64,000 nucleotides of DNA. It comes from a virus. The stretch spans positions 32,704 through 96,703 of the IMG/VR virus record IMGVR_UViG_3300023245_000006; one strand, 5' to 3'. Of this stretch, positions 16,060 to 43,243 are shown one piece after another. Positions within the stretch are counted from its first letter, which is position 1. Each line of letters begins with the position of its first letter. Made by a program: the position numbers and the translations under genes. The notes beneath the pieces were generated by a model. That model was not told where the DNA came from and ran no database searches. It saw nothing but the letters and a program-made list of their open reading frames with translations.

Positions 16060-16512
16060 TTAAGAAAGTAATTTTATTAGATTTGTTGTATAATCCATAA
16101 ACCCATTTCGTTCCATAGAACCATCTGGAAAAATTATATATATTTTTTTATTTTTCTTTTTAGAGTATCGGATGGTTGCCCATGTTCCTGATCTAACTTG
16201 TTCGATTTTACTACTAGGACATGCTATCATGATATTCGATGCGTCCACAATATCATGATTCCTTGCAAGATATTCTTTAGATTCGAGAACAACTCCATCC
16301 TCACAAAACGATCTTTTAATCTCGTTGATCGGTGGATGGATAATAATCTTACCGGACGAGACTTCTTTATAAATATTATGAGCATCCGTATCTGCTCCGA
16401 TACAGTCTCCATGATGAAATTCAACAGAGACTATATCAGAAAAGATACTTAGAACAACGTGCTTTTGCTCGTTACTCATACCAACTTGATTACCAGTAAA
16501 TCCAAATTTCAT
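16060..16512 (-). CDS. SLOG/DprA-Smf-like nucleotide-binding protein
   Basis: GFTG, HHGDCIGAD, RNHDIVD and SGTWAT motifs. Confidence 0.8.
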   Translation of the reverse strand: MKFGFTGNQVGMSNEQKHVVLSIFSDIVSVEFHHGDCIGADTDAHNIYKEVSSGKIIIHPPINEIKRSFCEDGVVLESKEYLARNHDIVDASNIMIACPSSKIEQVRSGTWATIRYSKKKNKKIYIIFPDGSMERNGFMDYTTNLIKLLS

Positions 16513-18385: not shown

Positions 18386-18482
18386 TTGTAATATATGTGA
18401 TAAGATAGAGAGAAAAATTCTAAATGTTATGTTGACGAGGTTTTGCGAATTATAAAACAACTATTAATCCATTGCCATTATT

Positions 18483-18978: not shown

Positions 18979-19842
18979 TTACTTCAAACAATTGTTGTAG
19001 TCCACTCGGGAAAAGTTAGGAACTCCGAGTCCGGTTAGATTGTTATAGAGGAATGTCACCGTCTTACCGATCCATTGATCTTTATCGTCCAAGAATTTTT
19101 TAGCCTCTTCTTGGGTTCCTTTGAACGAAGCATCAAATTCTTTTCCGTTCCATTTAAGAGTAATGACCTTACCCATCCCTGCCCAATTTCCGGTCCCTTC
19201 TTTGATATCTAAGATTTCGGCTTCTGAATCATCTGTCTGCTTCATTTTGAGAAGATTTGCAGATCGTTTGTTTTCATAAGGTGCATTAAGTAACCTAATG
19301 ATTGATCCTTCTTCACCATCCTCAACCAATTTTCCAAAATGCTTATAGATGTCTTCAAGGTTGTTACACATGACATTCTGAACCAATTTGATATAAGGAG
19401 TCGTTTCGAGTTCGATACTGATCCGAGCATATCTCGACATGTAAATAGATTCTTTGGTAACATTTCCTATATTGTATCCATCGTAAACAAAGAACCGAAC
19501 CCGTTGTTCACTGTTCTTCAAATGTTCTGGTGTGATATGGACACTCCGACGAATCAATTTCATCGTTTCGTTCAATTTATCTTTGAGACCATCACCCATC
19601 AATTCACCATCTAAAACCGCATCGGGATATACCGCGAAGAATCCTTTCAAAGCATCTTCGATATGAGGCACTGTCATATACTTTTCACCCTTACGAGTGT
19701 ATAGACCTTCTTTGGTTGCAATGCCGCGACAATTATGTGCTAAAATGCCATTAGCATAAAAGTTATGATTTCCTACGATTTCTAAATCGTATCGATTTTG
19801 CGGTGGTATCTTTTTTATAGATTTAATTTTTACAGTTTTCAT
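18979..19842 (-). CDS. ATP-dependent DNA ligase, C-terminal half preceded by split intein C-part (37 aa)
   Basis: YDLEI..NHNFYANGILAHN/C intein end, then LDGEL, EGSIIR and LLKMK ligase motifs. Confidence 0.92.
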   Translation of the reverse strand: MKTVKIKSIKKIPPQNRYDLEIVGNHNFYANGILAHNCRGIATKEGLYTRKGEKYMTVPHIEDALKGFFAVYPDAVLDGELMGDGLKDKLNETMKLIRRSVHITPEHLKNSEQRVRFFVYDGYNIGNVTKESIYMSRYARISIELETTPYIKLVQNVMCNNLEDIYKHFGKLVEDGEEGSIIRLLNAPYENKRSANLLKMKQTDDSEAEILDIKEGTGNWAGMGKVITLKWNGKEFDASFKGTQEEAKKFLDDKDQWIGKTVTFLYNNLTGLGVPNFSRVDYNNCLK

Positions 19843-20748: not shown

Positions 20749-21423
20749 TTATTTTTTTAATGCCAATACATCGCTATCCTTTATTTGATCGACCCGTCTC
20801 CAACACTTTAATCTTGGTAGATATAGCCTATGATTACCCGTGACCTGTATTTTTTTACCATTCATCAATTCTATTTCGAACCAATCGGGATTTTGTTCCT
20901 TTTCATCGAAACAATCTTTAAACCCCATTTTAATCGGTTTAAATTCGGTTTTCCTACTTACCATATTATAAGTCAAAACTTCACAATCGATATTATTCTC
21001 AACGATATCACCGATATTAATATCTCCTAGATTTGTAGTAATTTTTGTATCATAGGCAAAACATCCATTATACTTCACCTGTGAGACGCATGGATAAGTA
21101 ATCTTTTTGATACGATCCTTGAAGTTCTTGGCAAGCATAGGCTCGACGAATGACATCTTACCAATATCATCGATATTTTCAAAATACCCACCCGATTTCT
21201 TTTTCTTTTTCCACATGGCTTCGGCTTCGAATAGTGCCTGTGCTTCGGGATCGCGTTGATTGGCTCGACCAGCATTGGTCATAACCGTATCGGTCCATGC
21301 TGCCTCGACGATCTTTCCATCTTTCTGACCATAACGGGTGGTGAAAGATCCACCATCAACAATAACCTCCCATTGTTGAATTGCACCAGTCGAAGTGAGT
21401 GAATATAGAATAGGTAATTTCAT
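20749..21423 (-). CDS. ATP-dependent DNA ligase, N-terminal half (120 aa) plus split intein N-part (104 aa)
   Basis: PMLA..QVKYNG then CFAYDTKI (intein block A) and VTGNH (block B). Confidence 0.92.
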   Translation of the reverse strand: MKLPILYSLTSTGAIQQWEVIVDGGSFTTRYGQKDGKIVEAAWTDTVMTNAGRANQRDPEAQALFEAEAMWKKKKKSGGYFENIDDIGKMSFVEPMLAKNFKDRIKKITYPCVSQVKYNGCFAYDTKITTNLGDINIGDIVENNIDCEVLTYNMVSRKTEFKPIKMGFKDCFDEKEQNPDWFEIELMNGKKIQVTGNHRLYLPRLKCWRRVDQIKDSDVLALKK

Positions 21424-22043: not shown

Positions 22044-23090
22044 TTATTTCTTTGCATCGTAAGGGCTTGATATAAACTTCACGCTCCAATTCTTACCCAA
22101 AACGTTAGACCTGATAGGCTCTACAGTTTTAAGGACAAGACCTTCACCATCGGTCTTACCGTTGTCGTATTTAACACTATCGGCAATAATTTGCAATTCT
22201 TCGAGGGAAGGCATGTCTTCGACTTTGAAACGGAATAATTCTTCTACAGGTTGCAAGTAATCGCTACGCATACAAAACTCCAACACATCATCCCAAGAAA
22301 ACCAATTTCCACCATCAAGATTTTTGATTCCAAAGATAAACATATGTTGTCCTTTAAGGTTCATTTTATTTCCTTGAATACCTTCACCACAGATTTCTGA
22401 TTGAATGGCCAAATTCCGACCATCCAATTTGAGAGTGTCTTCGATCTTGTATTTTTCGGCCATCTTCCAAAAGGTGTTGTTTTCATCCTTTTTAAGTTCA
22501 AGGTTACGAGAACAAACACGCAAATGATTTCCTTGGATAGTTCCGTACCAATTAAAAAACGTTCCCGAAGAACCATCACACTTAGTTGTGGCTACGAGTT
22601 CTTGTCCTTGGAACCTATCTTCTTTCAATTCCAAGATTGCATCTGGGTTACTTCGGTAGTTATCTTCATCCGTTTTCGAAACGATGAAAGTTGGGAAATC
22701 GCCAAGAGCGATTCCGGCTAATTGTGATGACATCGGTGTTTCATATTTTTCGATGTTTAGATATTCTGCAACATCCATTCCCTCTTCCAAAACCAATCCA
22801 TCATTGAGAACCTCAAATCCCAATACGGATGCTGGGAGAACTAGACCAGCGGAAAACTGCCCCCGCATTTTCATGGTTTTGAGACGAATTCTTTCATTTC
22901 CTTCATACGTTGAATCGATAAGTTTCTTATCGATTAGGGTATCGGGAAATACAAAAATAACAGTATCTCCAACTTTATGTAGACCTTTTCTAACCACGCA
23001 ATACCACCCCAATACAAGCGAACGTTCGATAAAATCCGAATTTGGGATGGGGGTTAATTCTAAAATTTTGGTGACTTGTGTTAATTTCAT
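22044..23090 (-). CDS. RNA ligase, DRB0094 family
   Basis: N-terminal OB-like domain, KTDE, KCDGSS, CSRN and EGLV. Confidence 0.88.
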   Translation of the reverse strand: MKLTQVTKILELTPIPNSDFIERSLVLGWYCVVRKGLHKVGDTVIFVFPDTLIDKKLIDSTYEGNERIRLKTMKMRGQFSAGLVLPASVLGFEVLNDGLVLEEGMDVAEYLNIEKYETPMSSQLAGIALGDFPTFIVSKTDEDNYRSNPDAILELKEDRFQGQELVATTKCDGSSGTFFNWYGTIQGNHLRVCSRNLELKKDENNTFWKMAEKYKIEDTLKLDGRNLAIQSEICGEGIQGNKMNLKGQHMFIFGIKNLDGGNWFSWDDVLEFCMRSDYLQPVEELFRFKVEDMPSLEELQIIADSVKYDNGKTDGEGLVLKTVEPIRSNVLGKNWSVKFISSPYDAKK

Positions 23091-23120: not shown

Positions 23121-23798
23121 TCAAATACTAATCACCGAATAATCAGACAAAGTTTTAAAACCTTCATTTCGAAGGATTTCCGCCGATGCATCATTGTGGT
23201 GATATGTGTAAAAATTCTTATGATCTTTATATTCCAAAAGTTCTTGGTAATAACAATGCACACCATTATTAAATGTGGAAGCATCATGAAAAACCGTGGT
23301 TCCTTTACTTAATGATGTCGATAAAAAGGATAACGGTTTTCCAATATCACCAGAAAATGTTAAGATGTTGTCACCTTCAAATAAAAAAGCCCCGCTAGAA
23401 TTTACACCCTTGATATGTTCAGAATCTGTAGAAAATGTTATGATGTCAGGATCTCCCAAAGATCGGTATTCAACATTTCTTTGCATACCGCCCATATATA
23501 AAATATTTTCGACATCTTGCATAACGGTATTACTAGCCACAATTTGAATCGGTTTCTGGGGTTTGGTGCAAAACCATCTATAGTAAATTAATGATTCAAG
23601 ACTTCCAACATGGTCAGCATTAACATGGGTGATATAAATCAAATCGATCTTATCAACCCATCCAGTTTTAATCAATTTAGGAAAAACATCCCAACCACAA
23701 TCAACCAATATAGTCTTACCATTCGTTTCAACGATAAAAGAAGAATTCCCTTCATAAACATCAAAAGCACCACCGTAACCTAGTGTATGTATTTTCAT
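23121..23798 (-). CDS. MBL-fold metallohydrolase (RNase Z-like)
   Basis: LG.GGAF, VDCG, ITHVNADHVG and FSGD. Confidence 0.8.
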   Translation of the reverse strand: MKIHTLGYGGAFDVYEGNSSFIVETNGKTILVDCGWDVFPKLIKTGWVDKIDLIYITHVNADHVGSLESLIYYRWFCTKPQKPIQIVASNTVMQDVENILYMGGMQRNVEYRSLGDPDIITFSTDSEHIKGVNSSGAFLFEGDNILTFSGDIGKPLSFLSTSLSKGTTVFHDASTFNNGVHCYYQELLEYKDHKNFYTYHHNDASAEILRNEGFKTLSDYSVISI

Positions 23799-24163
23799 AG
23801 AACTTCCTCTAAAATTCTCCAACTTTTAAATGTATTAAAATCTACAGACACTTCTATAGGTTTACCAATTAATTGATCAACCGTAGAACATTTGGCATCG
23901 TTTAAAATCTGACTGACTTCTTTACACATATTAGCCATGGATTTTGATCGATCATCCTCGTCCCATTTTGTATATTTGGTGACATCGATATTAGAATAGT
24001 CCCAACCACCGTCAACAAATGTTGATCCATCACCACCTTTGATACTGAAAGATATATTAAGTCCCATTTGAACATCTTGATATCCGCCCAGACCAAATTT
24101 AGCCGATGTTATTTTTCCAAGATTTTTCTCGAAATCGTCGTGTTGTTTTGATTTATATTCCAT
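23795..24163 (-). CDS. hypothetical phage protein
   Basis: ORF coupled to the next gene. Confidence 0.7.
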   Translation of the reverse strand: MEYKSKQHDDFEKNLGKITSAKFGLGGYQDVQMGLNISFSIKGGDGSTFVDGGWDYSNIDVTKYTKWDEDDRSKSMANMCKEVSQILNDAKCSTVDQLIGKPIEVSVDFNTFKSWRILEEVL

Positions 24164-24253: not shown

Positions 24254-25639
24254 TCATTGAGAAATCTGTGGTGCCCTGTTGGACAACAACGATTCCATTG
24301 GTTTTTGAGCCTGACGGACTATAAGCTCGTCAGTGGGAGGACTGGAACTGTTCCAATAGAACCCGGAACGGTTCCAGTGTTGCTCCCGAGCAGCCTTCGG
24401 CAATAAAGGAAGGTCAAGGCTAATGTTCACGGAGCCATTCATATCTGCATTCTGTGCGTTTCCGCACCCTTTGCAAACGAACTGTTCTCCGCGTCTATTA
24501 GCCTTCTGCACCCATCCGCAGCACGAACATCGCTGGCTGGTAAACATCGGATTTACCTCAGACACTTGGACGCCAAGTGATTGAGCCTTTTGTTTAACGG
24601 CGTTTAGTAGCTTTGTTGCGCTCCAGTGAGAAAGTGATTTTGAGGTTCGGCGACCTCGCTTTAGATGTTTGATGCGTTCCACGCGAACAGACGCGACTCC
24701 CGTGAAATTGAGCCGATTTACGGATTCGCCCACGAAGTTTCGGCAGTGTGATTCGGCGCGTTTAAAGCCGTCACTCCCGCGCTTGCATCGCGCCATCTTA
24801 TTGTTTATATCTTTGAGGGACCATCCGTGGTTTCCCGTTTTGATCTGTGAACCATCACTCACCGAAAAGATGGACGTTTGCCCGATGTCAATGCCTATTG
24901 CGGGAACAATTCCTATTGCGGGAACAACTCCTATTGAGGAAAGAGTCAATTCCGCAGGTTGCGGCTCTGGAATCTCAAAGGATAACGAGACCTCTGTTTT
25001 GGACATTCGAACGCTATTGAGGCGCGTTCCAGTCTCTTGTATGGAGTTAAAATGCTTGTGGTAATTTAGAGGAATTAGCAACTTCTCGCCGCGAATGCCC
25101 GTTGGGCCTCCTACAACCTTGGTGTCTTTTACGCCCGTGGTGTCCTTTGTGCCCTTGGCACCCCTCAAACTCTTGATCGTAAGCCACGCATCAAAACTCG
25201 TTGAAATAGAAGGGTTTAGATCGAAGAATCTGCTATCTAGTTGAGCCTCAACGTGATTCGTTGCTGGACAAGAGACCTTGTTTTTTTCAATGATTGCTCG
25301 CAGAACCCGTGCCTTCTTGTGTTGCCCTGCTTTTTCAAACTCCTTTACTTGCCATTCTCTGCGCTTATTCTTCGCAAGACTGCCATTGGCAATGCCACTA
25401 GATTGTTTCGCGGCACACTGAATTGCTCTCGCAGAAAGCCAAGTTTGAACGTTCGTAATCTCGCCGCTAGGCATCTGTTGTACTTGCTTCCCATCGTTCA
25501 GCTCGTGCCAAAACCGCCCCACGAATTCTGTCACGACGCGTGCATATTCGTCTAGGAATTCAGCAACCTTTTCGCTTTTATGAGCGTTAGCGAATTTAAG
25601 CGTTAGCCGAGACGAACGGATGTTGCGTTTTTTCTTCAT
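24254..25639 (-). CDS. tnpB: RNA-guided endonuclease TnpB
   Basis: RuvC GIDIG, VERI, TSQRCSCCG..CKGCG Zn finger and NADMNGSVNI. Confidence 0.9.
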   Translation of the reverse strand: MKKKRNIRSSRLTLKFANAHKSEKVAEFLDEYARVVTEFVGRFWHELNDGKQVQQMPSGEITNVQTWLSARAIQCAAKQSSGIANGSLAKNKRREWQVKEFEKAGQHKKARVLRAIIEKNKVSCPATNHVEAQLDSRFFDLNPSISTSFDAWLTIKSLRGAKGTKDTTGVKDTKVVGGPTGIRGEKLLIPLNYHKHFNSIQETGTRLNSVRMSKTEVSLSFEIPEPQPAELTLSSIGVVPAIGIVPAIGIDIGQTSIFSVSDGSQIKTGNHGWSLKDINNKMARCKRGSDGFKRAESHCRNFVGESVNRLNFTGVASVRVERIKHLKRGRRTSKSLSHWSATKLLNAVKQKAQSLGVQVSEVNPMFTSQRCSCCGWVQKANRRGEQFVCKGCGNAQNADMNGSVNISLDLPLLPKAAREQHWNRSGFYWNSSSPPTDELIVRQAQKPMESLLSNRAPQISQ

Positions 25640-33329: not shown

Positions 33330-33421
33330 TGGCGGATAGTGAGAGAATTGAACTCTCGCTGGCCTTTCGACCAGACCAGTTTTCCAAACTGGCGCAACAA
33401 ACCAACATTTGCCTACCCTCC
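33330..33421 (-). tRNA. tRNA-Ser(GGA)
   Basis: cloverleaf, CCAGU-UU GGA AA-ACUGG, long V arm, CCA. Confidence 0.9.
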
Positions 33422-33426
33422 ATATG

Positions 33427-33515
33427 CGGAACGCCAGAGGATCGAACTCTGACCACCCTTTCGAGTGGATAAATTTAGCAAACTTACGCAGCAAGCCAAT
33501 ATCTGCCTACGTTCC
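33427..33515 (-). tRNA. tRNA-Ser(GCU)
   Basis: cloverleaf, long V arm. Confidence 0.88.
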
Positions 33516-33521
33516 AAAATA

Positions 33522-33953
33522 TCAATAAACAAATTGTTCAAAAAGGTCAGCACTAGAATTCCTCCCAACATCTCCCACTGGCAAAACGAGAATCGGTTTA
33601 CATTTAGAATGAAGATTCAAATCAATACATACCTGAATCATATCATCATAATGAATTTCGATTCCTAATTCATTAATAATCTCACTTTTAGGATTGTGAT
33701 GGGTGCAATGGATATGATCAATCGGGACCATTAAGTCATGATCTCGGATAAAATGAATCATTTCTAATTTACCCACCAATTTACGAAATGATACGATATG
33801 GACGTTATCACCCTTGGCAATATGTTCCGACATCACCTTACTAATCTTCTCGTTGAGGTCGATTACATAGTTGTTACCAGCCCAAACCAATGAGTCCCCA
33901 GAGGTTCTGCGAGGGATAGCCAAACAATCATCAAAATCGAATGAAATTTTCAT
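33522..33953 (-). CDS. HAD-like protein
   Basis: SFDFDDCL and HYDD. Confidence 0.7.
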   Translation of the reverse strand: MKISFDFDDCLAIPRRTSGDSLVWAGNNYVIDLNEKISKVMSEHIAKGDNVHIVSFRKLVGKLEMIHFIRDHDLMVPIDHIHCTHHNPKSEIINELGIEIHYDDMIQVCIDLNLHSKCKPILVLPVGDVGRNSSADLFEQFVY

Positions 33954-33955
33954 AA

Positions 33956-34309
33956 TTATACAGAAGGACTAATTAAACTTCTTGCGTATTCCCCCGCGAC
34001 CTGACGGACTGCCAATTTAACTAAAAATATGGAAAGTTCTTCCTCTGATAATTTTTTAATCTCATTAATATATTTGCGCTCACGTTCATCGGTCGGAGGT
34101 TTGATAAAATGAGATTTTAGCAAATGAATATCTCCATGCCCAATTTGAAGAGTTAGATCGACAGGTTTTTGGTAATTGGTGCGTGTTTCTTCCGCCAGTT
34201 CCACGGCAAATGAATTATCAAATAAACGGTTCGCAGCTTTGCAGTGTTTTTTGAGAGCTTCGTCTGGATCGCCCAACCGAGAACCGGCTAATGTTTTTTC
34301 CTTTTTCAT
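33956..34309 (-). CDS. hypothetical protein
   Basis: ORF with promoter upstream. Confidence 0.6.
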   Translation of the reverse strand: MKKEKTLAGSRLGDPDEALKKHCKAANRLFDNSFAVELAEETRTNYQKPVDLTLQIGHGDIHLLKSHFIKPPTDERERKYINEIKKLSEEELSIFLVKLAVRQVAGEYARSLISPSV

Positions 34310-34339
34310 ATTATTTATTGTTTGTATGCCTCGACATTA

Positions 34340-34825
34340 TCAATCTTTTATAGATTTGTCAAGTATCCATTCTGGAGTTTCTCGCTTTTTCCAATTAAAA
34401 AGATGCTTCTTACCAACTCGATAATAATTTCGATAATCTTCAATGTGATTTTTAGTTTCTGGGATCAAATCCTTGAAGGTGCCGAAGCACCTTGGCACAG
34501 CGGTCATTTCAACATTTTCAATTTGTGGATCGTTTTGCCGATACCAATCAAGGACGCCTTCACCTTTATGGATCTTTCCGTACCGATATGTATATTCCTC
34601 ACATAGAGCCTGACAGTGCTCTATAGACCATTTAAAGTTAGATTTGGATGCCCGACACCACTTTGTCATTGGATGATTGGTGTGAGTCCATTTATAAGGT
34701 GCCGTGCCTTTGGGATATGCAGATGACAAACATTGATTTATTTCGGTAATAATTTTAACTACATGGCGATCTACATAATATTTTGCAGCTTCTTTAGGAT
34801 CAGAGGATAGATGAAATATGTTCAT
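34340..34825 (-). CDS. pyrimidine-dimer DNA glycosylase (DenV/Pyr_excise-like)
   Basis: MNIF.L, D.HVVK, YK.TH.NHP..W and EYTYRYGK.H. Confidence 0.85.
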   Translation of the reverse strand: MNIFHLSSDPKEAAKYYVDRHVVKIITEINQCLSSAYPKGTAPYKWTHTNHPMTKWCRASKSNFKWSIEHCQALCEEYTYRYGKIHKGEGVLDWYRQNDPQIENVEMTAVPRCFGTFKDLIPETKNHIEDYRNYYRVGKKHLFNWKKRETPEWILDKSIKD

Positions 34826-34926
34826 TGGTAACTTTTACTTTACCACACATGTTATATATATGTCAACTATCTATTTGAGAACCATCAATTGTCGCATTTT
34901 TTTCACTACATAATGCCTTTATCTAG

Positions 34927-35019
34927 GGTGGGCGTGGTGGGGATCGAACCCACGATGTTTAACCACTTGGGTCATCGATTTTAAGTCGATGGTGTTTCAG
35001 CCAGCTTCACCACACGCCC
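34927..35019 (-). tRNA. tRNA-Leu(UAA)
   Basis: AUCGA-CU UAA AA-UCGAU, long V arm. Confidence 0.9.
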
Positions 35020-35024
35020 ATATT

Positions 35025-35396
35025 CTAAAATTTTCTTTCTTTCAGGTCATATTCAGAAGCAATGGCCCAACCATCTTGAACAAATAATCGAATCCAAAGA
35101 TAATAACTAACGTCGGATGTTAGGGTTGATAATCCGACATCCCAATAATCATGATTTTTGGGATATTCTTGAGGAAGGAAAGACATGTCCTTATAAATAA
35201 AACTATACAATGTGTGATCATAATTCAACCCCATTTGTAAAATTTCTTCTACGGTTTTATCCGTCTTTTGTCGTGCCACAGATTTTGAACAATCTAATTG
35301 ATCTACCTTAGTATCATAAGACGCCATTAGACAGTCTCTTAGGACCATTTCGGTTTGAGATTCTGGTAAAATGATTTGTATAGGTCTATGATTCAT
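35025..35396 (-). CDS. hypothetical protein
   Basis: ORF. Confidence 0.6.
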   Translation of the reverse strand: MNHRPIQIILPESQTEMVLRDCLMASYDTKVDQLDCSKSVARQKTDKTVEEILQMGLNYDHTLYSFIYKDMSFLPQEYPKNHDYWDVGLSTLTSDVSYYLWIRLFVQDGWAIASEYDLKERKF

Positions 35397-35400
35397 AATA

Positions 35401-35781
35401 TTAACTCAGACATGGGACGAACTCTACCCAATTTTCAATAAATTCTTGAAATGCCGCTTCATCTCTTTCTACCTTTTCTCTCCAATCTTGAAAGTGGGTT
35501 TTAGTAATTTTATGTCTATAATTATAACCGTGGCACTCGCATCGAGGCACGAATTCGTCCAAACCCGAAAAATCTAATCGAAGTGCGCTCTTGGCCGCAC
35601 CGATACTCGGCCAGATGGTTTTCTTTGATTTGGTGGTGATAAATTGTTGATTAGATAGTAATCTCACCCGAACCGGAGTGCTCCGTTTTTTAAGAATTTT
35701 TTCTTTTCGTTTCATAAACTCCAAGGACCACCATTCGAGAACTTCTACATCTTCTATCGGTATATTCAGTTTTATGTTCAT
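35401..35781 (-). CDS. hypothetical protein
   Basis: ORF with promoter upstream. Confidence 0.6.
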   Translation of the reverse strand: MNIKLNIPIEDVEVLEWWSLEFMKRKEKILKKRSTPVRVRLLSNQQFITTKSKKTIWPSIGAAKSALRLDFSGLDEFVPRCECHGYNYRHKITKTHFQDWREKVERDEAAFQEFIENWVEFVPCLS

Positions 35782-35823
35782 CTCCCCAATATAAACATGT
35801 TTAGAGGATTGTCAACAAATAAA

Positions 35824-35902
35824 TGGTGCAATAGGAGAATTTCGAAATCTCATGTGTCCTTTAACCTTTCTACGGCTCCGCAAGCCGAGGGTTTACTATT
35901 GC
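35824..35902 (-). tRNA. non-canonical D-arm-less tRNA-like RNA, anticodon GCG (Arg)
   Basis: 7-bp acceptor plus ACCA, T arm, CGGC-UUGCGGA-GCCG; paralog at 41434. Confidence 0.6.
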
Positions 35903-35942
35903 ATATTTAAACCATATGAAACTACTTATTATTTAAAAAAGT

Positions 35943-36100
35943 TTTACCAGCTACGGGGAATATCAGCAAAGCAGGTGAGTGAGAATTTCATCTGGACTCT
36001 TTATTGATCCCGAGTGCCCAATCGTCCTTGGTCTCCTTTCTCAAAGGGAGATTTCATGATCAGGTGCGTATAGCGTGTGTACTGCTATACGGCTGGCAAA
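35943..36100 (-). ncRNA. unidentified structured RNA
   Basis: closing stem UUUGCCAGC/GCUGGUAAA with internal hairpins. Confidence 0.45.
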
Positions 36101-36102
36101 AT

Positions 36103-36176
36103 TGGCGATCCGTGCGAGAATCAAACTCGCGATAAAACACTGAGAATGTTTTGTGTTATCATTACACTAATGGATC
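36103..36176 (-). tRNA. tRNA-Glu(CUC)
   Basis: AAACA-UU CUC AG-UGUUU, CCA. Confidence 0.8.
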
Positions 36177-36375
36177 GAAATTAAAAATGCACCCTCTCAA
36201 ACGTCTAGTCTTTTTTAATCACGGTCTCGATAACCGCTTTTTATTTAACCCATCTAGGCCATACCCCAATGTTTGTCTCGTTTTGTGAGAGAAATTGTAT
36301 GCTGCGAACCTTGGACTCGAACCAAGACTATACCTGATTCGGGGTGACTACCATTCCCTAGTTCGAATTAAAAAA

Positions 36376-36639
36376 TTTTTCTTGTTATGTGCATATTACG
36401 CCAAAAGAGAATCAGACCTTACCATTTACGGGGTATCCTTTTACTTCCACGGTTAGACGAAATCCAACATGAACGTCAATATCTAACTTTGACACGCTCA
36501 TGTTATCACAGACACCCATAAAATATGGACCGTTGATATCGGAGACTCGCGTTTCGCTCTACTCTTTAAAGGTAATTGTCATAGACAATCAGAATTTATC
36601 ATTCGTTGCTGCTTCTAAGCCAACCTCTAACAAGAAAAA
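36376..36639 (-). ncRNA. ncRNA mimicking 23S rRNA helices 43-44 (L11-binding domain)
   Basis: GAGGUUGGCUUAGAAGCAGC, CCUUUAAAGAG and GCGUAAUA in rRNA order inside a 12-bp closing stem. Confidence 0.75.
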
Positions 36640-36727
36640 TGGCGGATCATAATCGCATCGAACGATTAGCCTTTTAGAGCTACTACTATTTTCAAAATAG
36701 TTTGAGGAGCCTACCTCAGTATGATCC
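36640..36727 (-). tRNA. tRNA-Ser(UGA)
   Basis: ACUAU-UU UGA AA-AUAGU, V arm, CCA. Confidence 0.85.
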
Positions 36728-36773
36728 ATATAATTTTTTCGGGCGGTTAAAGCCCCATTTAAATTATATGAAA

Positions 36774-36948
36774 GAGAGAACCAAGGTGTCTTTCGCGTAA
36801 CACTCCACGACTAGTTCTTGCTGTATCAAAGCCCTGTTTTCACACATGGCTTGGTTAGGATCATCCTTCGATCAATTCAATGATCTACTGTGGTATGACC
36901 CAGACCCCGATATACTATATGCAGGGTATTTAGTTTTTTGGTTCTCTC
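36774..36948 (-). ncRNA. unidentified structured RNA
   Basis: perfect 11-bp closing stem GAGAGAACCAA/UUGGUUCUCUC. Confidence 0.5.
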
Positions 36949-36966
36949 AATCAAATTCAAAATTAA

Positions 36967-37038
36967 TTCTTCGATAGGGTTAGAACCTACATCTCTTGTA
37001 TACTATCACAAGGCTCTGGGGCATTGAGCTACGAAGAA
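36967..37038 (-). tRNA. degenerate tRNA with 8-nt anticodon loop, identity unclear
   Basis: acceptor, D and T stems present; no CCA. Confidence 0.5.
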
Positions 37039-37050
37039 ATTTAATAAAAA

Positions 37051-37124
37051 TGGTCCCCATCACGGTGATTCTCCGCGCCAAAGTCCCCACGGACTTCGTT
37101 CTATTATGTTAAACTATCAAGGGA
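37051..37124 (-). tRNA. degenerate tRNA-like RNA
   Basis: ends ACCA; AAGUC/GACUU stem with 6-nt loop. Confidence 0.4.
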
Positions 37125-37303
37125 TTTAAAATTAATTGAGCATCTACAGACCGTTCTGTATATCCATCCCCAAGGGACAAATTGGAGCCACAGGCGCGGA
37201 GACCTCTCGGCAATCTCCAACTCTTAGACATTTCTGAACAAGTGTGTTGGCCATCATTCTCACTTAACACTCAAATTTAATGGTAGGTGTTCCCTACCTG
37301 ATG

Positions 37304-37392
37304 CACTGCAACTAGGATTCGAACCTAGATACCTCTTTCGAGGAATACGCGAAGTTAACAGCTTCGTCCCTTACCAGTTAGGGTATCGCAGT
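37304..37392 (-). tRNA. tRNA-Asn(GUU) with long variable arm
   Basis: CGAAG-CU GUU AA-CUUCG; CCUC-GAAA-GAGG V arm. Confidence 0.88.
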
Positions 37393-37398
37393 AAAAAC

Positions 37399-37452
37399 TA
37401 GATGCAGTTTTTTGTGTTTAATATACAATTTTTTGATTGCTGTATGCACCTA
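37399..37452 (-). ncRNA. CAGCAAUCAA stem-loop element, copy C
   Basis: UAGGUGCA/UGCAUCUA stem with the same loop motifs. Confidence 0.6.
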
Positions 37453-37513
37453 AATTCTGAAAATAAACTTGCACTTTAGGTGGATTTCTACCCCGTTTAG
37501 TGTAAGTAGTTAT

Positions 37514-38380
37514 ATGAATATTATATCCGATATAGCAAAATTAAAAAGTCATGATCTCGTTGAGTTAAAATGTGAAAGATGCGAAAAACAATTCTTTTCC
37601 AAAAAACGAATTGTATTGGATAAAAGGAGAATTTTGAAATCTAAAAATCATATGCTTTTCTGTTCTCGGGGATGTTTAGAAATACACTCTGGTAATCGAA
37701 TTTTATGCAAATGTGCCCAATGTGATAAAGATGTATGTAAACCATTAAAAGATTTTAAGAAATCCTCTAATCATTTTTGCACATCTTCGTGTGCTGCGAA
37801 ATTTAATATTCCACGAAGGGAATCTATATGGACCCCTGAATTGAGGAATAAAATGTCGGCTTATGCGAAAAAGAATTACACACAACCTATACATATTAAA
37901 ACAGGAACTTATAAAACATGTCTGATATGTGATAAAGAATTTTACTGCTCACCGTCAAGCAGTCAAAGAAAATTTTGTAGTTTACCGTGTTCATATAAAA
38001 ATCCTAATCTCGGTGGATATAGAGAAAATTCCACCCGACTACATCGTTGTTTTTATAATGGTATCAAAATGGATTCGGGTTCCGAAGCGCAATTTGCCGA
38101 ACTTTTGGATGATAATAATATCAAATGGTCTAAAAACACAACTACATTCTTTCATTACATTTACCGAGGGAAAAATAAGAAATATTATCCAGATTTTTAT
38201 CTCGAAGATTTGAAGTTGTGGGTGGAAATTAAAGGAAAATTTTATATCGAGGATTGGTTGCCTAATAAAATCCAATCTGTGAAAGATGATAATCAGAAAA
38301 TCATTCTTATTGATTCGGATCATTTGAAACATAAAGAAGAAATTTTGAGAAGAATATCAACAGAATCTTCGCGTATTTAA
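37514..38380 (+). CDS. Zn-finger PD-(D/E)xK homing endonuclease
   Basis: repeated CxxC/FCS..C; YYPDFYL..WVEIKG; TAAGTA upstream; antisense within the tRNA array. Confidence 0.85.
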   Translation: MNIISDIAKLKSHDLVELKCERCEKQFFSKKRIVLDKRRILKSKNHMLFCSRGCLEIHSGNRILCKCAQCDKDVCKPLKDFKKSSNHFCTSSCAAKFNIPRRESIWTPELRNKMSAYAKKNYTQPIHIKTGTYKTCLICDKEFYCSPSSSQRKFCSLPCSYKNPNLGGYRENSTRLHRCFYNGIKMDSGSEAQFAELLDDNNIKWSKNTTTFFHYIYRGKNKKYYPDFYLEDLKLWVEIKGKFYIEDWLPNKIQSVKDDNQKIILIDSDHLKHKEEILRRISTESSRI

Positions 38381-38381
38381 A

Positions 38382-38457
38382 GGCGGAACCAAAGGGACTC
38401 GAACCCTCAAATCATCTCCGTGACAGGGAGGCGCATTTTCCAGCTTGCTATGATTCC
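38382..38457 (-). tRNA. tRNA-Asp(GUC)
   Basis: cloverleaf. Confidence 0.85.
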
Positions 38458-38542
38458 AGAAATTGGAGATCAAGTTGGGACTTTTACCCCTATCTTCACA
38501 CACTCCCGTCTCAACAAGTGCATCAGTTTTCTTTTACGTAAA

Positions 38543-38619
38543 TGGCGGAACCGATGGGACTCGAACCCACACGTAGCTTCCTTGACAGGGAAGTGAATTT
38601 TCCAGCTTTCTACGATTCC
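38543..38619 (-). tRNA. tRNA-Asp(GUC), second copy
   Basis: cloverleaf, CCA. Confidence 0.9.
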
Positions 38620-38716
38620 ATAAATTGTCCCTATATACGGACTTTTACCGTTCGATAATGTTTCACATCTTGTTGCCCTATAAGGAAAGGCCATCGAATT
38701 TTCTTTTACGTAAAAA

Positions 38717-38789
38717 TGGTGGGCGTAGCAGGACTTGAACCTACACTTGGAGAGGACTTTGCCTGATATACATTTCATCTCCCATACGC
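38717..38789 (-). ncRNA. tRNA-like RNA with acceptor and T arm only
   Basis: ends GUAGGUUCAAGUCCUGCUACGCCCACCA; D and anticodon arms replaced by one hairpin. Confidence 0.45.
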
Positions 38790-38794
38790 TAAAT

Positions 38795-38869
38795 TGGTGA
38801 TCTGCCTCCGAATCGAACGGAGTCATGGAAGGATGTAAACCTTCGGCCTTCCCACTTGGCGAGCAGACC
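38795..38869 (-). tRNA. tRNA-Val(UAC)
   Basis: cloverleaf, CCA. Confidence 0.9.
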
Positions 38870-38875
38870 ATAAAA

Positions 38876-39103
38876 TTATTTGTTTTTTTGTGACCATTCG
38901 TAAATATACCGAATACCATCATAGATAAAATAAAAACCAAAAAAGATGATCGGGATAAGAATGATAGCGGCCAATAATTGCCACCCAAAGGTGTAAAAAG
39001 CTACCGCAACAATAAACAACAACATAAACAAAAACAGACACCAAAATATAAGGTCGATCATTTCAAATATAAAACTCACCAAGTTTGCAATAATTTTCTT
39101 CAT
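38876..39103 (-). CDS. small membrane protein
   Basis: two TM segments; own TTGACA promoter. Confidence 0.65.
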   Translation of the reverse strand: MKKIIANLVSFIFEMIDLIFWCLFLFMLLFIVAVAFYTFGWQLLAAIILIPIIFFGFYFIYDGIRYIYEWSQKNK

Positions 39104-39145
39104 AGGGTGAAGATATCAAAATTTCAGATATTGTCAATTAAAAAG

Positions 39146-39221
39146 TGGAGTCATCTCTCGGTATCGAACCGAGCAACAAACCTTTTGCAGAGGTTGGGGT
39201 TCACCTGCTCCCTCAGAGGAC
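39146..39221 (-). tRNA. tRNA-Cys(GCA)
   Basis: cloverleaf, U73, CCA. Confidence 0.85.
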
Positions 39222-39232
39222 TAAAATTCTTT

Positions 39233-39365
39233 AAACATGGTGGGATTTGGACCCACTCCTGCATTTGGAGGATTCATCTCTAAGAATAATGGATTTCGCA
39301 TCACTAGTAGATGTTCCAGAGTTCTTTCGATAATGCTGCGTCATTTACATTTCCGCCTCATGTTT
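39233..39365 (-). ncRNA. tRNA-like RNA with an enlarged anticodon-arm insert
   Basis: AAACAUG/CAUGUUU acceptor, D arm, GUGGG/CCCAC T arm; GCAUU/AAUGC stem encloses roughly 65 nt. Confidence 0.5.
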
Positions 39366-39370
39366 AAAAT

Positions 39371-39445
39371 TGGAGCGGGTGGGGAGGGACGATCTCCCAT
39401 CTGGGCATAGGCAATGCCCCATAATAGCCGTTATACGACACCCGC
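39371..39445 (-). tRNA. tRNA-Gly(GCC)
   Basis: cloverleaf, CCA; unusual U37. Confidence 0.88.
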
Positions 39446-39450
39446 TTAAA

Positions 39451-39524
39451 TGGTGGAGCATATGATAATCGAAATCATAGACAAGAATTTTGCAAGAATT
39501 CTCCGCTGACCACAGCTATGCCCC
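39451..39524 (-). tRNA. tRNA-Ala(UGC)
   Basis: G3:U70 pair, CCA. Confidence 0.9.
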
Positions 39525-39560
39525 ATAAAATTTTTCCATGCTCTAATTCGAGCGGAATAA

Positions 39561-39638
39561 TGGCCGCTAAGATCTGATTCGAACAGATTCCCTCATTTTT
39601 TCAGAATGTCGTGCGAGTTCCAACTACACCACTTAGCG
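39561..39638 (-). tRNA. tRNA-Phe(GAA)
   Basis: loop CU GAA AA, CCA. Confidence 0.75.
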
Positions 39639-39728
39639 TTTTTAAATTATCGACTGAACCAGTTTTCTTTGAATCGCCACCACCTTCCGGCAAATCCCTT
39701 AGATGGGGAGGACTCTATCAGTCAAAAT

Positions 39729-39808
39729 TGGTATCCCGCGAGGATTAGCAGCCCTCATTATTTTTCCTTGGAAGGGAAACGCCATTAAGCTATTTAGGCG
39801 AGCGAGAC
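39729..39808 (-). tRNA. tRNA-Gly(UCC), atypical
   Basis: UUUCC-CU UCC AA-GGAAA, CCA. Confidence 0.7.
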
Positions 39809-40025
39809 ATATAAATGGTTAAGAGACAACTCTGTGATCAAATTTCTCAAAAGACTCCCCGAATTACGCATACATTTAGAGGCGCGGGGAGTATGATAAA
39901 TTGAACTGTTTAAGGTTTATCCTCTTTCGCAAACAGGGTTGCGTCATTTGATTATCACAAATAATAACGATTCGGTGAGGTAGACATTTATGAAGTCCGT
40001 CTTGTTTCCAATTCCCATCCAGACT

Positions 40026-40110
40026 TGGTGCGAACGGAGGGACTTGAACCCACACTCCTTGCGGAACCAGATCCTAAATCTGGCGCGTCTGCCGATTTCG
40101 CCACGCTCGC
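40026..40110 (-). tRNA. tRNA-Leu(UAG)
   Basis: canonical cloverleaf, CCA. Confidence 0.93.
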
Positions 40111-40328
40111 ATAAATACAACATTTCAAAGCAAGTTGCCAGCTTTCACCATAGCTTCCACCATAGAGTTTGCAATCTATTTAGCGTTTTATCGCAACTGC
40201 ATAACTCAGAAAAGGTGCGGGGTTGTTGCACTTAGTCAACTATCATATACCGCGCAGAAAGTTTACGAAACAAAAAGGATTTCACGAACGTTCTTTACAG
40301 GTGGAATCGAACTAATCCCAAAGTCATA

Positions 40329-40408
40329 TGGTCGGAAATCGGGCCATCGAATCCCGCTGAATATCGTGATCCCAAATCACGCGACCACGCCAAGCAGTCC
40401 CATTTCCG
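40329..40408 (-). tRNA. tRNA-Pro(UGG)
   Basis: cloverleaf, CCA. Confidence 0.88.
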
Positions 40409-40418
40409 TTAAAATGTA

Positions 40419-40493
40419 TGGTAGGAGATACGGCGTCTGAATCCGTTATCTGGACTTATGAAATCCGAAGTTTACCGCATAACTTAATCTCCC
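40419..40493 (-). tRNA. tRNA(CAU), Met or Ile2
   Basis: loop UU CAU AA, CCA. Confidence 0.75.
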
Positions 40494-40580
40494 ATTTTTA
40501 AATTGGCACTAGTCTTTCCTAGATGTCAACAGAATCGTTTTGTAGCTATTCTGAAATTAAAATTTAAATAGTAGCAAAAA

Positions 40581-40682
40581 TGGTAGCGGGGGCGGCGTTC
40601 GAATCCGATGAAAGGGCTTATTCAGTAATCACATCATGATTACTGAATGAGACCCCCGAGTTACCACCTTCTCTACCCTGCG
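40581..40682 (-). tRNA. initiator-like tRNA-Met(CAU) with a 27-nt hairpin insert in the anticodon loop
   Basis: C1:U72 mismatch, G-rich anticodon stem, insert at 40620-40646. Confidence 0.8.
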
Positions 40683-40689
40683 ATTAAAA

Positions 40690-40875
40690 TGTTTCAAATA
40701 TTTTCTATAAAATTTGTTAAATTCTGGATTATCAGACACATTTAAGATCAACGCTTTGTAGCCTCTTTTCTCGCAAAAATATCGCAAGGCGGTGTTTTTT
40801 TCTTCGAAAAACCTCGTGTAGTTATTTAACGTTTCACCATGCTTCCATATCATTTTTACTTCTACGACTACTCAA
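40690..40875 (-). pseudogene. endonuclease C-terminal remnant
   Basis: VVEVK...K..ALRYFCEKRGY without an N-terminus. Confidence 0.45.
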
Positions 40876-40879
40876 CAAA

Positions 40880-40956
40880 TGGTAGCGAGTCCTAGGAATC
40901 GAACCTAGCTCTCAAGCTTATGAAACTTGAATGGTCAACCAGACCACCTGACCGCA
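40880..40956 (-). tRNA. tRNA-Met(CAU)
   Basis: CAAGU-UU CAU AA-GCUUG, 1:72 mismatch, CCA. Confidence 0.78.
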
Positions 40957-41165
40957 ATAAATTGGTGCATCCAGTGGGATTCGAACCTTCTGTGTTTATT
41001 GTCGTAACACTTCCTCATGAGGTCGTGAAACTATATTAGACTTTTTAATTGTGCGTTCCTTGGGGTCTTTCACAGATCATGATCTGATCGAACCTTGCAG
41101 CACCGTCTCGTTAAAAATGTTTTGGTGGGCGAAGAGTTGTGTTCGCCTACGCACCAAAAAATGTT

Positions 41166-41243
41166 TGGTCCTCCGTGCTGGCGTCGATCCAGCTACCTCG
41201 CTCTTATAAAGAGCTTGCTCTGCCAATCGTGAGCTAACGGAGG
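41166..41243 (-). tRNA. tRNA-Ile(UAU)
   Basis: GCUC-UU UAU AA-GAGC, CCA. Confidence 0.85.
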
Positions 41244-41256
41244 TTAGAAAATTATG

Positions 41257-41327
41257 TCTCTATAGCTGGAATCGAACCAACGAAGAGCCTTTATCAAAGG
41301 CTTATTATACCATTTAATTATACAGAG
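41257..41327 (-). tRNA. tRNA-Ile(GAU)
   Basis: AGCCU-UU GAU AA-AGGCU. Confidence 0.82.
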
Positions 41328-41433
41328 GTTGAAAATACATCCGATCAGTTTCGCGAGACTCTACATGGTAGTAATCATTGGTCGCATGAACCTTCAAACG
41401 TGCAGGCTTTATCGTTTAGATAAATTATTCAAA

Positions 41434-41512
41434 TGGTGCGTCGGGGGAATTTCGAAATCCCATGCGTCCTTTACCGTTTCAATCGGTTCGAAGCCGAAGC
41501 GGATACCAACGC
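41434..41512 (-). tRNA. non-canonical D-arm-less tRNA-like RNA, anticodon UCG (Arg)
   Basis: 7-bp acceptor plus ACCA, T arm, UCGG-CUUCGAA-CCGA. Confidence 0.6.
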
Positions 41513-41516
41513 GAAA

Positions 41517-41601
41517 TGGTGGGTGATCAGGAAATCGAATCCTGCGATCATTACGAGCGGGGTTTACAATCCCGACTGCCTCCTTAACAGTTTAATCACC
41601 C
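41517..41601 (-). tRNA. tRNA-Tyr(GUA)
   Basis: cloverleaf, V arm, CCA. Confidence 0.88.
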
Positions 41602-41615
41602 AAAAATCTAAAATG

Positions 41616-41686
41616 CTCCCCGTCGTGGAATCGAACCACGCCTGTCTGGGCCAAAACCAGATGTGCAACCGATACACCTACAGGGA
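41616..41686 (-). tRNA. tRNA-Gln(UUG)
   Basis: UCUGG-UU UUG GC-CCAGA. Confidence 0.85.
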
Positions 41687-41709
41687 ATAATACTAAAATT
41701 TTCTAAGCG

Positions 41710-41950
41710 ATAGAGTTAGATATCTACATCCAAAAATTAGACTTGGCTTTTGAGATCAATGGTATATTTCATTACTCTCCCATCTACGGGGAATCTAAAT
41801 TGTTAAATATTCAAAGAAATGATACGCGAAAATCAAAAAATGTTTCGAGGATGGTATAGAATTGTGTGTTATAAACACTACCGAACAGATGAAATTCACT
41901 GAATTGTCGTCATTAAAATATTTCCAAATTATCCAAGATAAGATTAATGA
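41710..41950 (+). pseudogene. frameshifted homing-endonuclease remnant
   Basis: IELDIYIQKLDLAFEINGIFHY..ND.RK, then frameshift to KCFEDGIELCVI; no start codon. Confidence 0.7.
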
Positions 41951-41954
41951 AAAA

Positions 41955-42031
41955 TGGTGTGGTATATGATATTCGAAATCATCCTGTCTCTTTCACAAAG
42001 AGAAGTGCGAAACCACTACACTAATACCACC
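41955..42031 (-). tRNA. tRNA-His(GUG)
   Basis: UCUCU-UU GUG AA-AGAGA, G-1, CCA. Confidence 0.88.
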
Positions 42032-42114
42032 ATAAAAACATTCAACCCGTATGCACACATACGGATAGTTTCTAGAAACTAATAACTACACATTGTTAAG
42101 GCAAAGTATCGAAA

Positions 42115-42201
42115 TGGCATGGCTGACGGGAATCGAACCCGCTTCCCATAAGGGACACTGCTTGAAAGGCAGGTCAGACTCTCCGACTTCTGCGCAACCA
42201 C
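42115..42201 (-). tRNA. tRNA-Glu(UUC) with long variable arm
   Basis: CUGC-CU UUC AA-GCAG; UCCC-UUAU-GGGA V arm; CCA. Confidence 0.82.
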
Positions 42202-42218
42202 ATATAAAGTTTTTGAAA

Positions 42219-42314
42219 TGGCATGGATATAAGAAATCGAATCTTATCGTAGTCATTTCTTCCGATTTGACACAAAGGATTTGGAGTCCTTCCGGCTACC
42301 TTAGCCTTATCCAT
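42219..42314 (-). tRNA. tRNA-Trp(CCA) with long variable region
   Basis: AAGGA-CU CCA AA-UCCUU; CCA end. Confidence 0.82.
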
Positions 42315-42340
42315 ATATAAATGTAAACGATCATTATCAA

Positions 42341-42419
42341 TGGTGGCGCAGACAGGAGTCGAACCTGTTATCCCAAAGCTTATGAGACTTGGATTATTAT
42401 TCCGTTTCACTCCCGCGAC
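42341..42419 (-). tRNA. tRNA(CAU), Met or Ile2
   Basis: loop CU CAU AA, CCA. Confidence 0.8.
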
Positions 42420-42462
42420 AAATTGTATGGAGCCAAGACGGGGAATCGGGGTAAGTATTAGT

Positions 42463-43170
42463 ATGAAGATGCTCGTACCAAATATTTCAGATGTTGTTCG
42501 CGGCTCAAAAGTTCCATGCGAATGCTTAAATTGTAAGAAACCTTTTTTCGTTAGTATATCACTAGCACGAAGGGGATTGAAAGGGACAAAAAGGGTCGAT
42601 TTTTGTTCCGTAGAGTGTTCACGACGAGCGAAGACTCTCACCAAGTCTATTATTTGTAAAAATTGCGGAGAAAGTCGGATTATCCAAAATAGCCAAATTG
42701 GTGATAATAATTTCTGTTCAAGGTCTTGTTCGGCAACTTTCAACAACCATTTAAGAAAAATTACTAACACTAAAACAAAAAATTGTGAGAATTGCAAAGA
42801 CTCATTTTCTTTCATCGAGAGGGAAAATCCAAGAAAATTTTGTTCGCAGATTTGCACAAGAAAATATAAACAACAAGAGTTGATTAGTAATTGGAAAGAT
42901 GGGTCCATCAATGGGTGGACGGGAAAGACTATCCGAATTAAAGTATTCGTAAGAAGATATCTTTTTGATAAATATGAAAACAAATGTTGTAAATGTGGTT
43001 GGAGTCAAATTAACCCAACTAGCAAATCTATTCCTTTGGAGGTCAACCATATTGACGGTGATGCTTTGAATTGTTCTGAGGATAACCTTGAACTAATTTG
43101 TCCAAATTGTCATAGTTTGACTCCAAACTTTAGGAGACTTAACAAGAGTGGCAAACGCAATCGATCATGA
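42463..43170 (+). CDS. Zn-finger HNH homing endonuclease
   Basis: FCS..C repeats; LEVNHIDG..N...NL.LICPNCHS; TAAGTA upstream. Confidence 0.9.
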   Translation: MKMLVPNISDVVRGSKVPCECLNCKKPFFVSISLARRGLKGTKRVDFCSVECSRRAKTLTKSIICKNCGESRIIQNSQIGDNNFCSRSCSATFNNHLRKITNTKTKNCENCKDSFSFIERENPRKFCSQICTRKYKQQELISNWKDGSINGWTGKTIRIKVFVRRYLFDKYENKCCKCGWSQINPTSKSIPLEVNHIDGDALNCSEDNLELICPNCHSLTPNFRRLNKSGKRNRS

Positions 43171-43243
43171 GCTTCCTGTCGGTGTCGAACCGACTTCCCC
43201 TCATTACAAGTGAGGAATTCTAGCCAGCGTGAACTAAGGAAGC
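43170..43243 (-). tRNA. tRNA-Thr(UGU)
   Basis: CCUCA-CU UGU AA-UGAGG. Confidence 0.9.

Follow-up and report, generated by a model that had tools for sequence, protein, structure and literature searches.

Candidate arginine tRNA genes with a displaced D loop in the tRNA array of a large phage, and their relatives in viral genomes

Introduction

The DNA analysed here (the window) is a stretch of 64,000 nucleotides (nt) from virus record IMGVR_UViG_3300023245_000006 of the IMG/VR database, a record of 96.7 kb that is estimated to be 46% complete. Among the genes of a phage tRNA array it carries two elements, A and B (Table 1), which present the arginine anticodons GCG and UCG and are built like tRNAs at their ends, and which have no hairpin in the place where the D arm is expected. 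To our knowledge, the cloverleaf is treated as universal outside organelles. An original prediction, made from the letters of the window, had described the two elements as D-arm-less tRNA-like RNAs of rearranged architecture, acting as decoders or as decoys. Here we report that A and B belong to a family that is almost confined to phages, and that they are probably functional arginine tRNA genes in which a D stem and a D loop are retained but connected in a different order.

The window has a GC content of about 36% and its DNA recurs in DNA sequencing runs of salt-lake metagenomes. Four such runs hold the same strain, with zero variants inside A or B. Close relatives were absent from 50,697 GenBank phage records, searched by blastn with the region of element A and by tblastn with an open reading frame (ORF) of 1090 amino acids.

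Results

Every feature that the original prediction had listed for the two elements is present, on the minus strand: the length of 79 nt, the acceptor stems of seven base pairs (bp; GCAAUAG/CUAUUGC in A and GCGUUGG/CCGACGC in B), the terminal ACCA, the UUCGAAA loops and the hairpins that expose GCG or UCG. In both elements the acceptor strand is followed by U8 and A9, by a 3-bp stem around the anticodon hairpin and by a UNGAAA linker, after which come UAAAGGAC(A/G)CAU, the T arm, the 3' acceptor strand, an A and CCA. The 3-bp stem joins positions 11-13 with 37-39 (ACC/GGU in A, CCG/CGG in B) and encloses a hairpin of 4 bp with a 7-nt loop. No local D hairpin lies between positions 9 and 26 of A or B, where ARAGORN makes no call and the consensus fold has none. 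The label 'D-arm-less' is therefore right as regards a local hairpin and wrong as regards the D stem, which is present (11-13 with 37-39, plus 10 with 40) with its two strands flanking the anticodon arm; in A its fourth pair is A10-U40. A further detail had not been predicted, namely that the T stem consists of four pairs plus a U.U where G53-C61 normally sits.

Table 1. Positions in the window of elements A and B, their parts and their array; R1 is the covariance model described in the text
Feature	Position	Strand	Remarks
Element A, candidate rewired tRNA-Arg(GCG)	35824-35902	(-)	79 nt = 76 nt + encoded CCA; R1 81.7 bits
A, anticodon GCG	35879-35881	(-)	loop UUGCGGA, 35877-35883; predicted to read CGC and CGU; anticodon followed by G36-G37
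A, split D stem, strand AACC (putative place of canonical 22-25)	35890-35893	(-)	pairs with 35863-35866
A, split D stem, strand GGUU (putative place of canonical 10-13)	35863-35866	(-)	family covariation; un-transposition
A, displaced D loop AAAGGACACA, then U	35852-35862	(-)	covariation; identity base
A, T arm	35835-35851	(-)	4 pairs + U.U; loop UUCGAAA
Element B, candidate rewired tRNA-Arg(UCG)	41434-41512	(-)	79 nt = 76 nt + encoded CCA; R1 86.4 bits
B, anticodon UCG	41489-41491	(-)	loop CUUCGAA, 41487-41493; predicted to read CGA and CGG
B, split D stem, strand UCCG	41500-41503	(-)	pairs with 41473-41476; family covariation; un-transposition
B, split D stem, strand CGGU	41473-41476	(-)	family covariation; un-transposition
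B, displaced D loop AAAGGACGCA, then U	41462-41472	(-)	covariation; identity base
B, T arm	41445-41461	(-)	4 pairs + U.U; loop UUCGAAA
Phage tRNA array around A and B	33330-43243	(-)	22 tRNAs called by ARAGORN on the same strand, none for Arg
tRNA-Tyr	41517-41601	(-)	ARAGORN

The two elements align without gaps. Nine of the 19 base pairs of the model differ on both sides between A and B and yet pair in each, one has turned into a wobble and none is broken, while 32/38 unpaired positions are identical, compared with 19/38 paired ones. Nine compensated pairs, none broken, together with this constancy of the unpaired positions are the signature of selection on RNA structure. A 27-nt core common to A and B occurs twice in the window and was absent from 100 shuffles. 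Element B is nearer to a UCG member in Streptomyces phage TunaTartare (76% identity) than it is to A (67%). The folding of single sequences carries little weight in this case (z of -2.2 for A and of -0.14 for B), and the fold is resolved by comparative analysis only.

Homologues of B were found by blastn in 130-kb Streptomyces phages. For a scan of IMG/VR we used a pattern of 44 columns in which the core was fixed and the anticodon was left free; it replaced an earlier viral pattern that was too loose and whose matches, mostly due to chance, had been filtered by script. The 44-column pattern matched 31 viral contigs of 4.7 to 438 kb, which yielded 26 distinct sequences, and all 26 carry arginine anticodons (UCU in 12, ACG in 10, UCG in three and GCG in one). 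Among the members found, GCG occurs in this window only. The same pattern gave no match in 185,579 prokaryote species, each represented by one genome. Relaxing the segment that resembles a D loop raised the total to 87 distinct sequences, 27 of the Arg class and 60 of an isoleucine (Ile) type with the anticodons UAU (50), GAU (8) and CAU (2). The Ile-class loci are viral (L120-L199) or lie in metagenome-assembled genomes (MAGs; L208, L210 and L215-L217). In the prokaryote genomes the relaxed pattern had 14 matches. Five of them are true members, and each of the five belongs to the Ile class and lies on a MAG contig. The family is thus almost confined to phages. Cultured phages that carry members include Mildred21 and TunaTartare of Streptomyces and A3Wally of Microbacterium. 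The anticodons UCU and UAU are one base apart, and a single origin of the Arg and Ile classes is likely because the same core is common to both.

A covariance model (R1, built on alignment A2) separates the family from ordinary tRNAs, which score at most 28.5 bits. Members score 81.7-96.3 bits, or 86.5-96.3 bits for those other than A and B, which are in the seed, so that their own scores are partly so by construction. The phage homologues, which the original prediction had proposed to look for, retain the anticodon hairpin. Three divergent relatives with R1 scores of 41-54 bits (L073:2892-2967(-), UAU; L016:89-170(-), UCU; L047:785-860(-), UCU) have altered or longer linkers, which suggests that further sub-types of the layout may exist. 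A full-text literature search returned no description of the layout in the library that was searched.

Across 21 members the four helices are 99.5% paired, with compensatory changes in 16/19 pairs and a covariation score of 0.91, compared with 0.22 for shuffled and no more than 0.17 for slid controls. Helix 1 was partly selected because acceptor pairing served as a filter; the other three helices were subject to no filter on pairing. The split stem covaries across the family at 11-39 (AU, GC and CG) and at 13-37 (CG and GC), and RNAalifold independently gives the same fold. Outside the helices, the strongest covariation links column 42 with column 51, the base before the T stem (AU in 48, GC in 25 and GG in 10 sequences), a pattern that supports an equivalent of the Levitt pair R15:Y48. 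A and B have A42 and U51, with GG and then A in a displaced D loop of the form UAA-N-GG-A.

Every one of the 27 Arg members has A on the 3' side of the GG, where 59 of the 60 Ile members have U; A73 is found in all 60 of the latter. The identity sets given in PMC9976931 are A20, C35, U/G36 and A/G73 for bacterial Arg, and U20, A35, U36 and A73 for bacterial Ile. Both A and B have C35, G36, A73 and an A after the GG. Since A or U after the GG tracks the anticodon class, a class-specific synthetase determinant sits where position 20 would be, and the A of the Arg class may be presented to arginyl-tRNA synthetase (ArgRS) like A20.

When the 14 bases of columns 37-50 were moved in silico to between positions 9 and 10, ARAGORN called a cloverleaf in 87/87 sequences, compared with 0/87 in their native form. 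Un-transposed A was called as tRNA-Arg(gcg), with a restored D stem of four Watson-Crick pairs, and un-transposed B as tRNA-Arg(tcg). Control moves of columns 41-54 or 44-57 gave 0/87 calls. The claim that the architecture is rearranged, with the GG of the D loop moved to the 3' side of the anticodon, is thus borne out by the covariation in the family, by the Levitt-type pair and by un-transposition.

ARAGORN, which the original prediction had proposed to try, misses both A and B. With the Rfam model RF00005, A scores 19.9 bits, under the gathering score of 29, and B is not matched at E up to 10. The UCG homologue in phage Mildred21 is labelled tRNA-Phe(gaa) in GenBank and scores 32 bits with RF00005. 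A second rewired copy in Mildred21 (L102:4639-4715), whose anticodon is ACG and whose displaced D loop is longer by a 1-nt insertion, is unannotated, as are the other blastn homologues in GenBank records of Streptomyces phages.

Members of the family sit in tRNA arrays, on the strand of the tRNAs. In the window, CGN codons make up 57% of the Arg codons of 46 ORFs, CGA being the commonest of them with 145 uses. The anticodons GCG and UCG together cover the whole CGN box, and both CGN readers of the record are rewired: the array was predicted to hold no canonical tRNA that reads CGN, and we found no canonical tRNA-Arg at all across the 96.7 kb. Where a locus has both rewired and canonical tRNA-Arg, their anticodons coincide in 0/6 loci examined by script, and L073 is a seventh such case; in the Ile class they coincide in two of about 21 such loci. 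Canonical GCG and UCG pairs are present in other phage arrays (L120, L123 and L147), so that the strategy itself is ordinary and the chassis alone is unusual.

Element B starts 4 nt past the CCA of tRNA-Tyr, a spacing that would fit co-transcription and processing by RNase P. About two thirds of the tRNAs in the array have an encoded CCA, as A and B do. The array also holds an odd tRNA at 36966-37038 (-), whose acceptor stem, D arm and T arm are normal but whose anticodon loop has 8 nt (GAUAGUAU), and which has no encoded CCA; ARAGORN reports it as 'tRNA-???' with a 2-base anticodon, and its Rfam tRNA score is 36.2 bits. This tRNA may be of a quadruplet or frameshift type, or it may be defective. 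A tRNA-like gene of 87 nt at 42115-42201 (-) combines, unusually, the long variable arm of a class II body with a Glu anticodon (UUC, in the loop CUUUCAA) and has an encoded CCA; ARAGORN calls it at a relaxed threshold only and Rfam does not list it at E up to 1. In the tRNA-Met(CAU)-like gene at 42341-42419 (-), CCA is encoded, the acceptor stem is interrupted by a U.C mismatch, and the D arm is very weak and lacks GG; the gene scores 23.9 bits with Rfam, below the gathering score, and ARAGORN again requires the relaxed threshold. The best sigma-70-like site of the region (35788-35815 (-); TTGACA, 16 nt, TATATT; 11/12) lies 9 nt downstream of A and faces an ORF of 126 amino acids (35781-35401).

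Upstream of the array are two RNA ligase genes, 16509-17618 (-) and 22044-23090 (-), one of them T4 Rnl1-like (PF09511) and the other PF09414 with a PHA02142 OB domain, as well as an HD-domain gene (17771-18460), and these may form a tRNA-repair set. An HNH endonuclease gene is also located upstream, as are the Acb3-like, TnpB/Cas12f-like and DNA ligase genes described next. The ORFs at 14101-14895 (-), 23121-23822 (-) and 24254-25639 (-) encode, respectively, an Acb3-like homologue of inhibitors of the cyclic-oligonucleotide-based anti-phage signalling system (CBASS), a metallo-beta-lactamase-fold protein with a sub-threshold match to Apyc1, and a TnpB/Cas12f-like protein. Pieces of an ATP-dependent DNA ligase at 18979-19842 (-) and 20749-21423 (-) have sub-threshold matches to intein-splicing domains on two separate ORFs, which suggests that the ligase may be intein-interrupted or split.

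Discussion

From the structure of A and B, its conservation and the pattern of identity bases, we infer how the RNAs would be wired, folded in three dimensions, processed, charged and used. The canonical segment 10-21, that is, the 5' strand of the D stem and the D loop, would lie on the 3' side of the anticodon arm, immediately ahead of position 48. The chain would run from the acceptor through U8 and A9 to a 22-25-like strand, the anticodon arm, the UNGAAA linker (44-47-like) and a 10-13-like strand, and then through the D loop with its GG and A20 to the Levitt partner, the T arm, the acceptor and ACCA. In this mapping, element positions 37-40 would correspond to canonical 10-13, 41-50 to 14-21, 10-13 to 22-25, C14 to 26, 15-31 to the anticodon arm (its first pair being U.U), 32-36 to 44-47, and 51 to 48. 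The displaced D loop of A would supply A14-, R15-, G18G19-, A20- and A21-like bases, and its last U would be the 48-like Levitt partner. Under this mapping, as in ordinary tRNAs, a G10-C25-like pair would be conserved, a 13-22-like pair would be weak and the G in a 45-like place would be invariant, and the stacked arm would have ten layers, equal to a canonical D stem plus anticodon stem. It may be, then, that the ordinary contacts of the L shape (U8-A14, R15-Y48, G18G19 with the T loop, and the D stem stacked on the anticodon stem) are all made, with only three backbone links changed relative to an ordinary tRNA. Such an RNA would be cut from the polycistronic transcript of the array, charged by the host ArgRS via A20, C35 and G36, and would read phage CGN codons on the ribosome, GCG serving CGY and UCG serving CGR.

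The family resembles canonical bacterial and phage tRNA-Arg (RF00005) in several respects. Its acceptor has 7 bp, its T stem five positions and its T loop the sequence UUCRA; the anticodon loop is 7 nt long, includes U33 and has a purine as base 37; the anticodons are those of Arg, the GG is followed by an A20-like base, CCA is encoded and the genes are located in tRNA arrays. Unlike canonical tRNA-Arg, it has no local D hairpin, carries the 10-21 segment past the anticodon arm, has Rfam scores that are below the gathering score or absent, and escapes ARAGORN. With the D-armless tRNAs of metazoan mitochondria (for example, mitochondrial tRNA-Ser) it shares the missing D hairpin and an anticodon arm joined to the acceptor by a short connector. 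Those tRNAs, as characterized in the review PMC7609411, have lost the D arm and are flexible, whereas the rewired family, which has normal tRNA length and occurs in phage genomes, keeps in a new order the D stem, the GG of the D loop, U8, an A14-like base and the Levitt-type pair. The retention of the D-stem strands, the GG and the Levitt-type pair rules out a D-armless tRNA of the mitochondrial type. Allo-tRNAs are, like the rewired family, non-standard and occur in part in phage tRNA clusters, as do (8/4) tRNAs; according to Mukai et al. (2017; PMC5389517), allo-tRNAs have an acceptor-T branch of 8/4 or 9/3, a D hairpin that combines a long stem with a tetraloop, and a long variable arm (V-arm), and UAU and GCG are among their predominant anticodons. 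This identity was also ruled out, the rewired elements having a 7-bp acceptor (7/5) and neither a D hairpin nor a V-arm hairpin. Nor are A and B the tRNA-like domain of a transfer-messenger RNA (tmRNA), as the anticodon hairpin is present and ARAGORN finds no tmRNA in the window. The permuted tRNA genes of Cyanidioschyzon merolae have the 3' half before the 5' half, and a circular intermediate restores the normal cloverleaf. The order of parts departs from the textbook in these genes as well; in the rewired elements, by contrast, the acceptor strands are at the two ends, so that no simple cut-and-join restores the canonical order and a permuted gene restored by processing was ruled out.

The original prediction had left open whether the two RNAs are decoders or decoys, and it is the former that the identity bases, the non-duplicated anticodons and the coverage of CGN favour. 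We put at roughly 0.8 the probability that A and B function as arginine tRNA genes of a large phage and have a wiring other than the cloverleaf. A decoy or sponge, tRNA-shaped but outside translation, might sequester a nuclease, a synthetase or some other factor that binds tRNA, and both the non-canonical core and the U.U at 53-61 in the two window copies would suit it. Yet a decoy would need neither class-specific synthetase identity bases, a 7/5 acceptor-T branch and an encoded CCA, nor anticodons that complement the canonical set or, as in the window, a pair that exactly tiles CGN where there is no other tRNA-Arg; we consider this role quite improbable. A different proposal refines the decoder rather than excluding it: the rewiring may have been kept because it makes the tRNA a poor substrate for a tRNA-targeting nuclease, whether of a host defence or of a phage enzyme that clears host tRNAs. 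The rewired core would then be an anti-defence invention, in which connectivity is changed and three-dimensional shape is kept, such that ArgRS, EF-Tu and the ribosome accept the RNA while a nuclease or modification enzyme no longer recognises or threads it. The distribution is consistent with this idea, with the Arg class in viral contigs and in none of the prokaryote species genomes, and with the few members that the relaxed pattern recovered from such genomes all being of the Ile class and on MAG contigs; moreover, the two RNA ligases of the window (one T4 Rnl1-like) and its anti-defence homologues, such as the Acb3-like one, suggest pressure from RNA-targeting defences. However, the anticodon loops have an ordinary bacterial make-up (CUACGAA is one example), and cleavage of rewired tRNAs would still be expected from the well-known anticodon nucleases, which read the loop. 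Canonical and rewired tRNAs also stand side by side in the same arrays. An origin in anti-defence seems unlikely to us.

HNH or endonuclease VII genes adjoin some members, as might be expected if these were decaying tRNA pseudogenes or the debris of rearrangements caused, for instance, by homing endonucleases. This account is already contradicted by covariation, four helices having been kept by compensatory changes in 87 distinct sequences and the comparison of A with B having shown compensated pairs and no broken one, and we regard it as very improbable. The annotation of the Mildred21 copy raises the question of whether the elements are ordinary cloverleaves in another register, with the GAA of the UNGAAA linker as the anticodon, and the RF00005 score of that copy is in keeping with its label. 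The Rfam alignment itself, though, deletes the D arm and sets the CUUCGAA hairpin loop as the anticodon loop; the GAAA has no flanking stem; the G is preceded by U, A or C, which would leave a GAA anticodon with no fixed U33; and ARAGORN finds no cloverleaf in the native sequence. A tRNA-Phe is thus hardly credible.

Several observations weigh against A and B being functional rewired arginine tRNAs, or limit how far the case extends. A and B have the two lowest R1 scores of any members, and both copies have U.U at 53-61, a position that is almost always G-C, although this oddity is softened by the fact that several tRNAs of the array are also without G53-C61. Because members were gathered by sequence patterns, part of the 'invariant core' was imposed by the search, and because they are related, their counts are not independent events. 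Moving columns 31-44 instead of 37-50 still yields 83/87 ARAGORN calls, and the exact boundaries of the transposition are therefore not fixed. Finally, the record covers only about 46% of the genome, so that the remainder may hold canonical Arg tRNAs.

GenBank phage records leave such genes unannotated or mislabelled. Phage tRNA repertoires and analyses of codon supply are biased as a result, because tRNA finders miss rewired genes and records mislabel them; in this record, the entire Arg supply would be overlooked. Our results provide evidence, at the level of sequence, that an L-shaped tRNA can be wired in a second way, one that is widespread in phages and serves Arg and Ile at least. Should function be confirmed, the family would constitute a natural test of which features of a tRNA depend on three-dimensional shape and which on chain connectivity, a question that spans RNase P, synthetases, EF-Tu, modification enzymes, the ribosome and tRNA-directed nucleases. 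In that case tRNA engineering would gain a new scaffold as well and, should the rewiring have been kept as a defence against nucleases, the layout would be a naturally orthogonal tRNA chassis.

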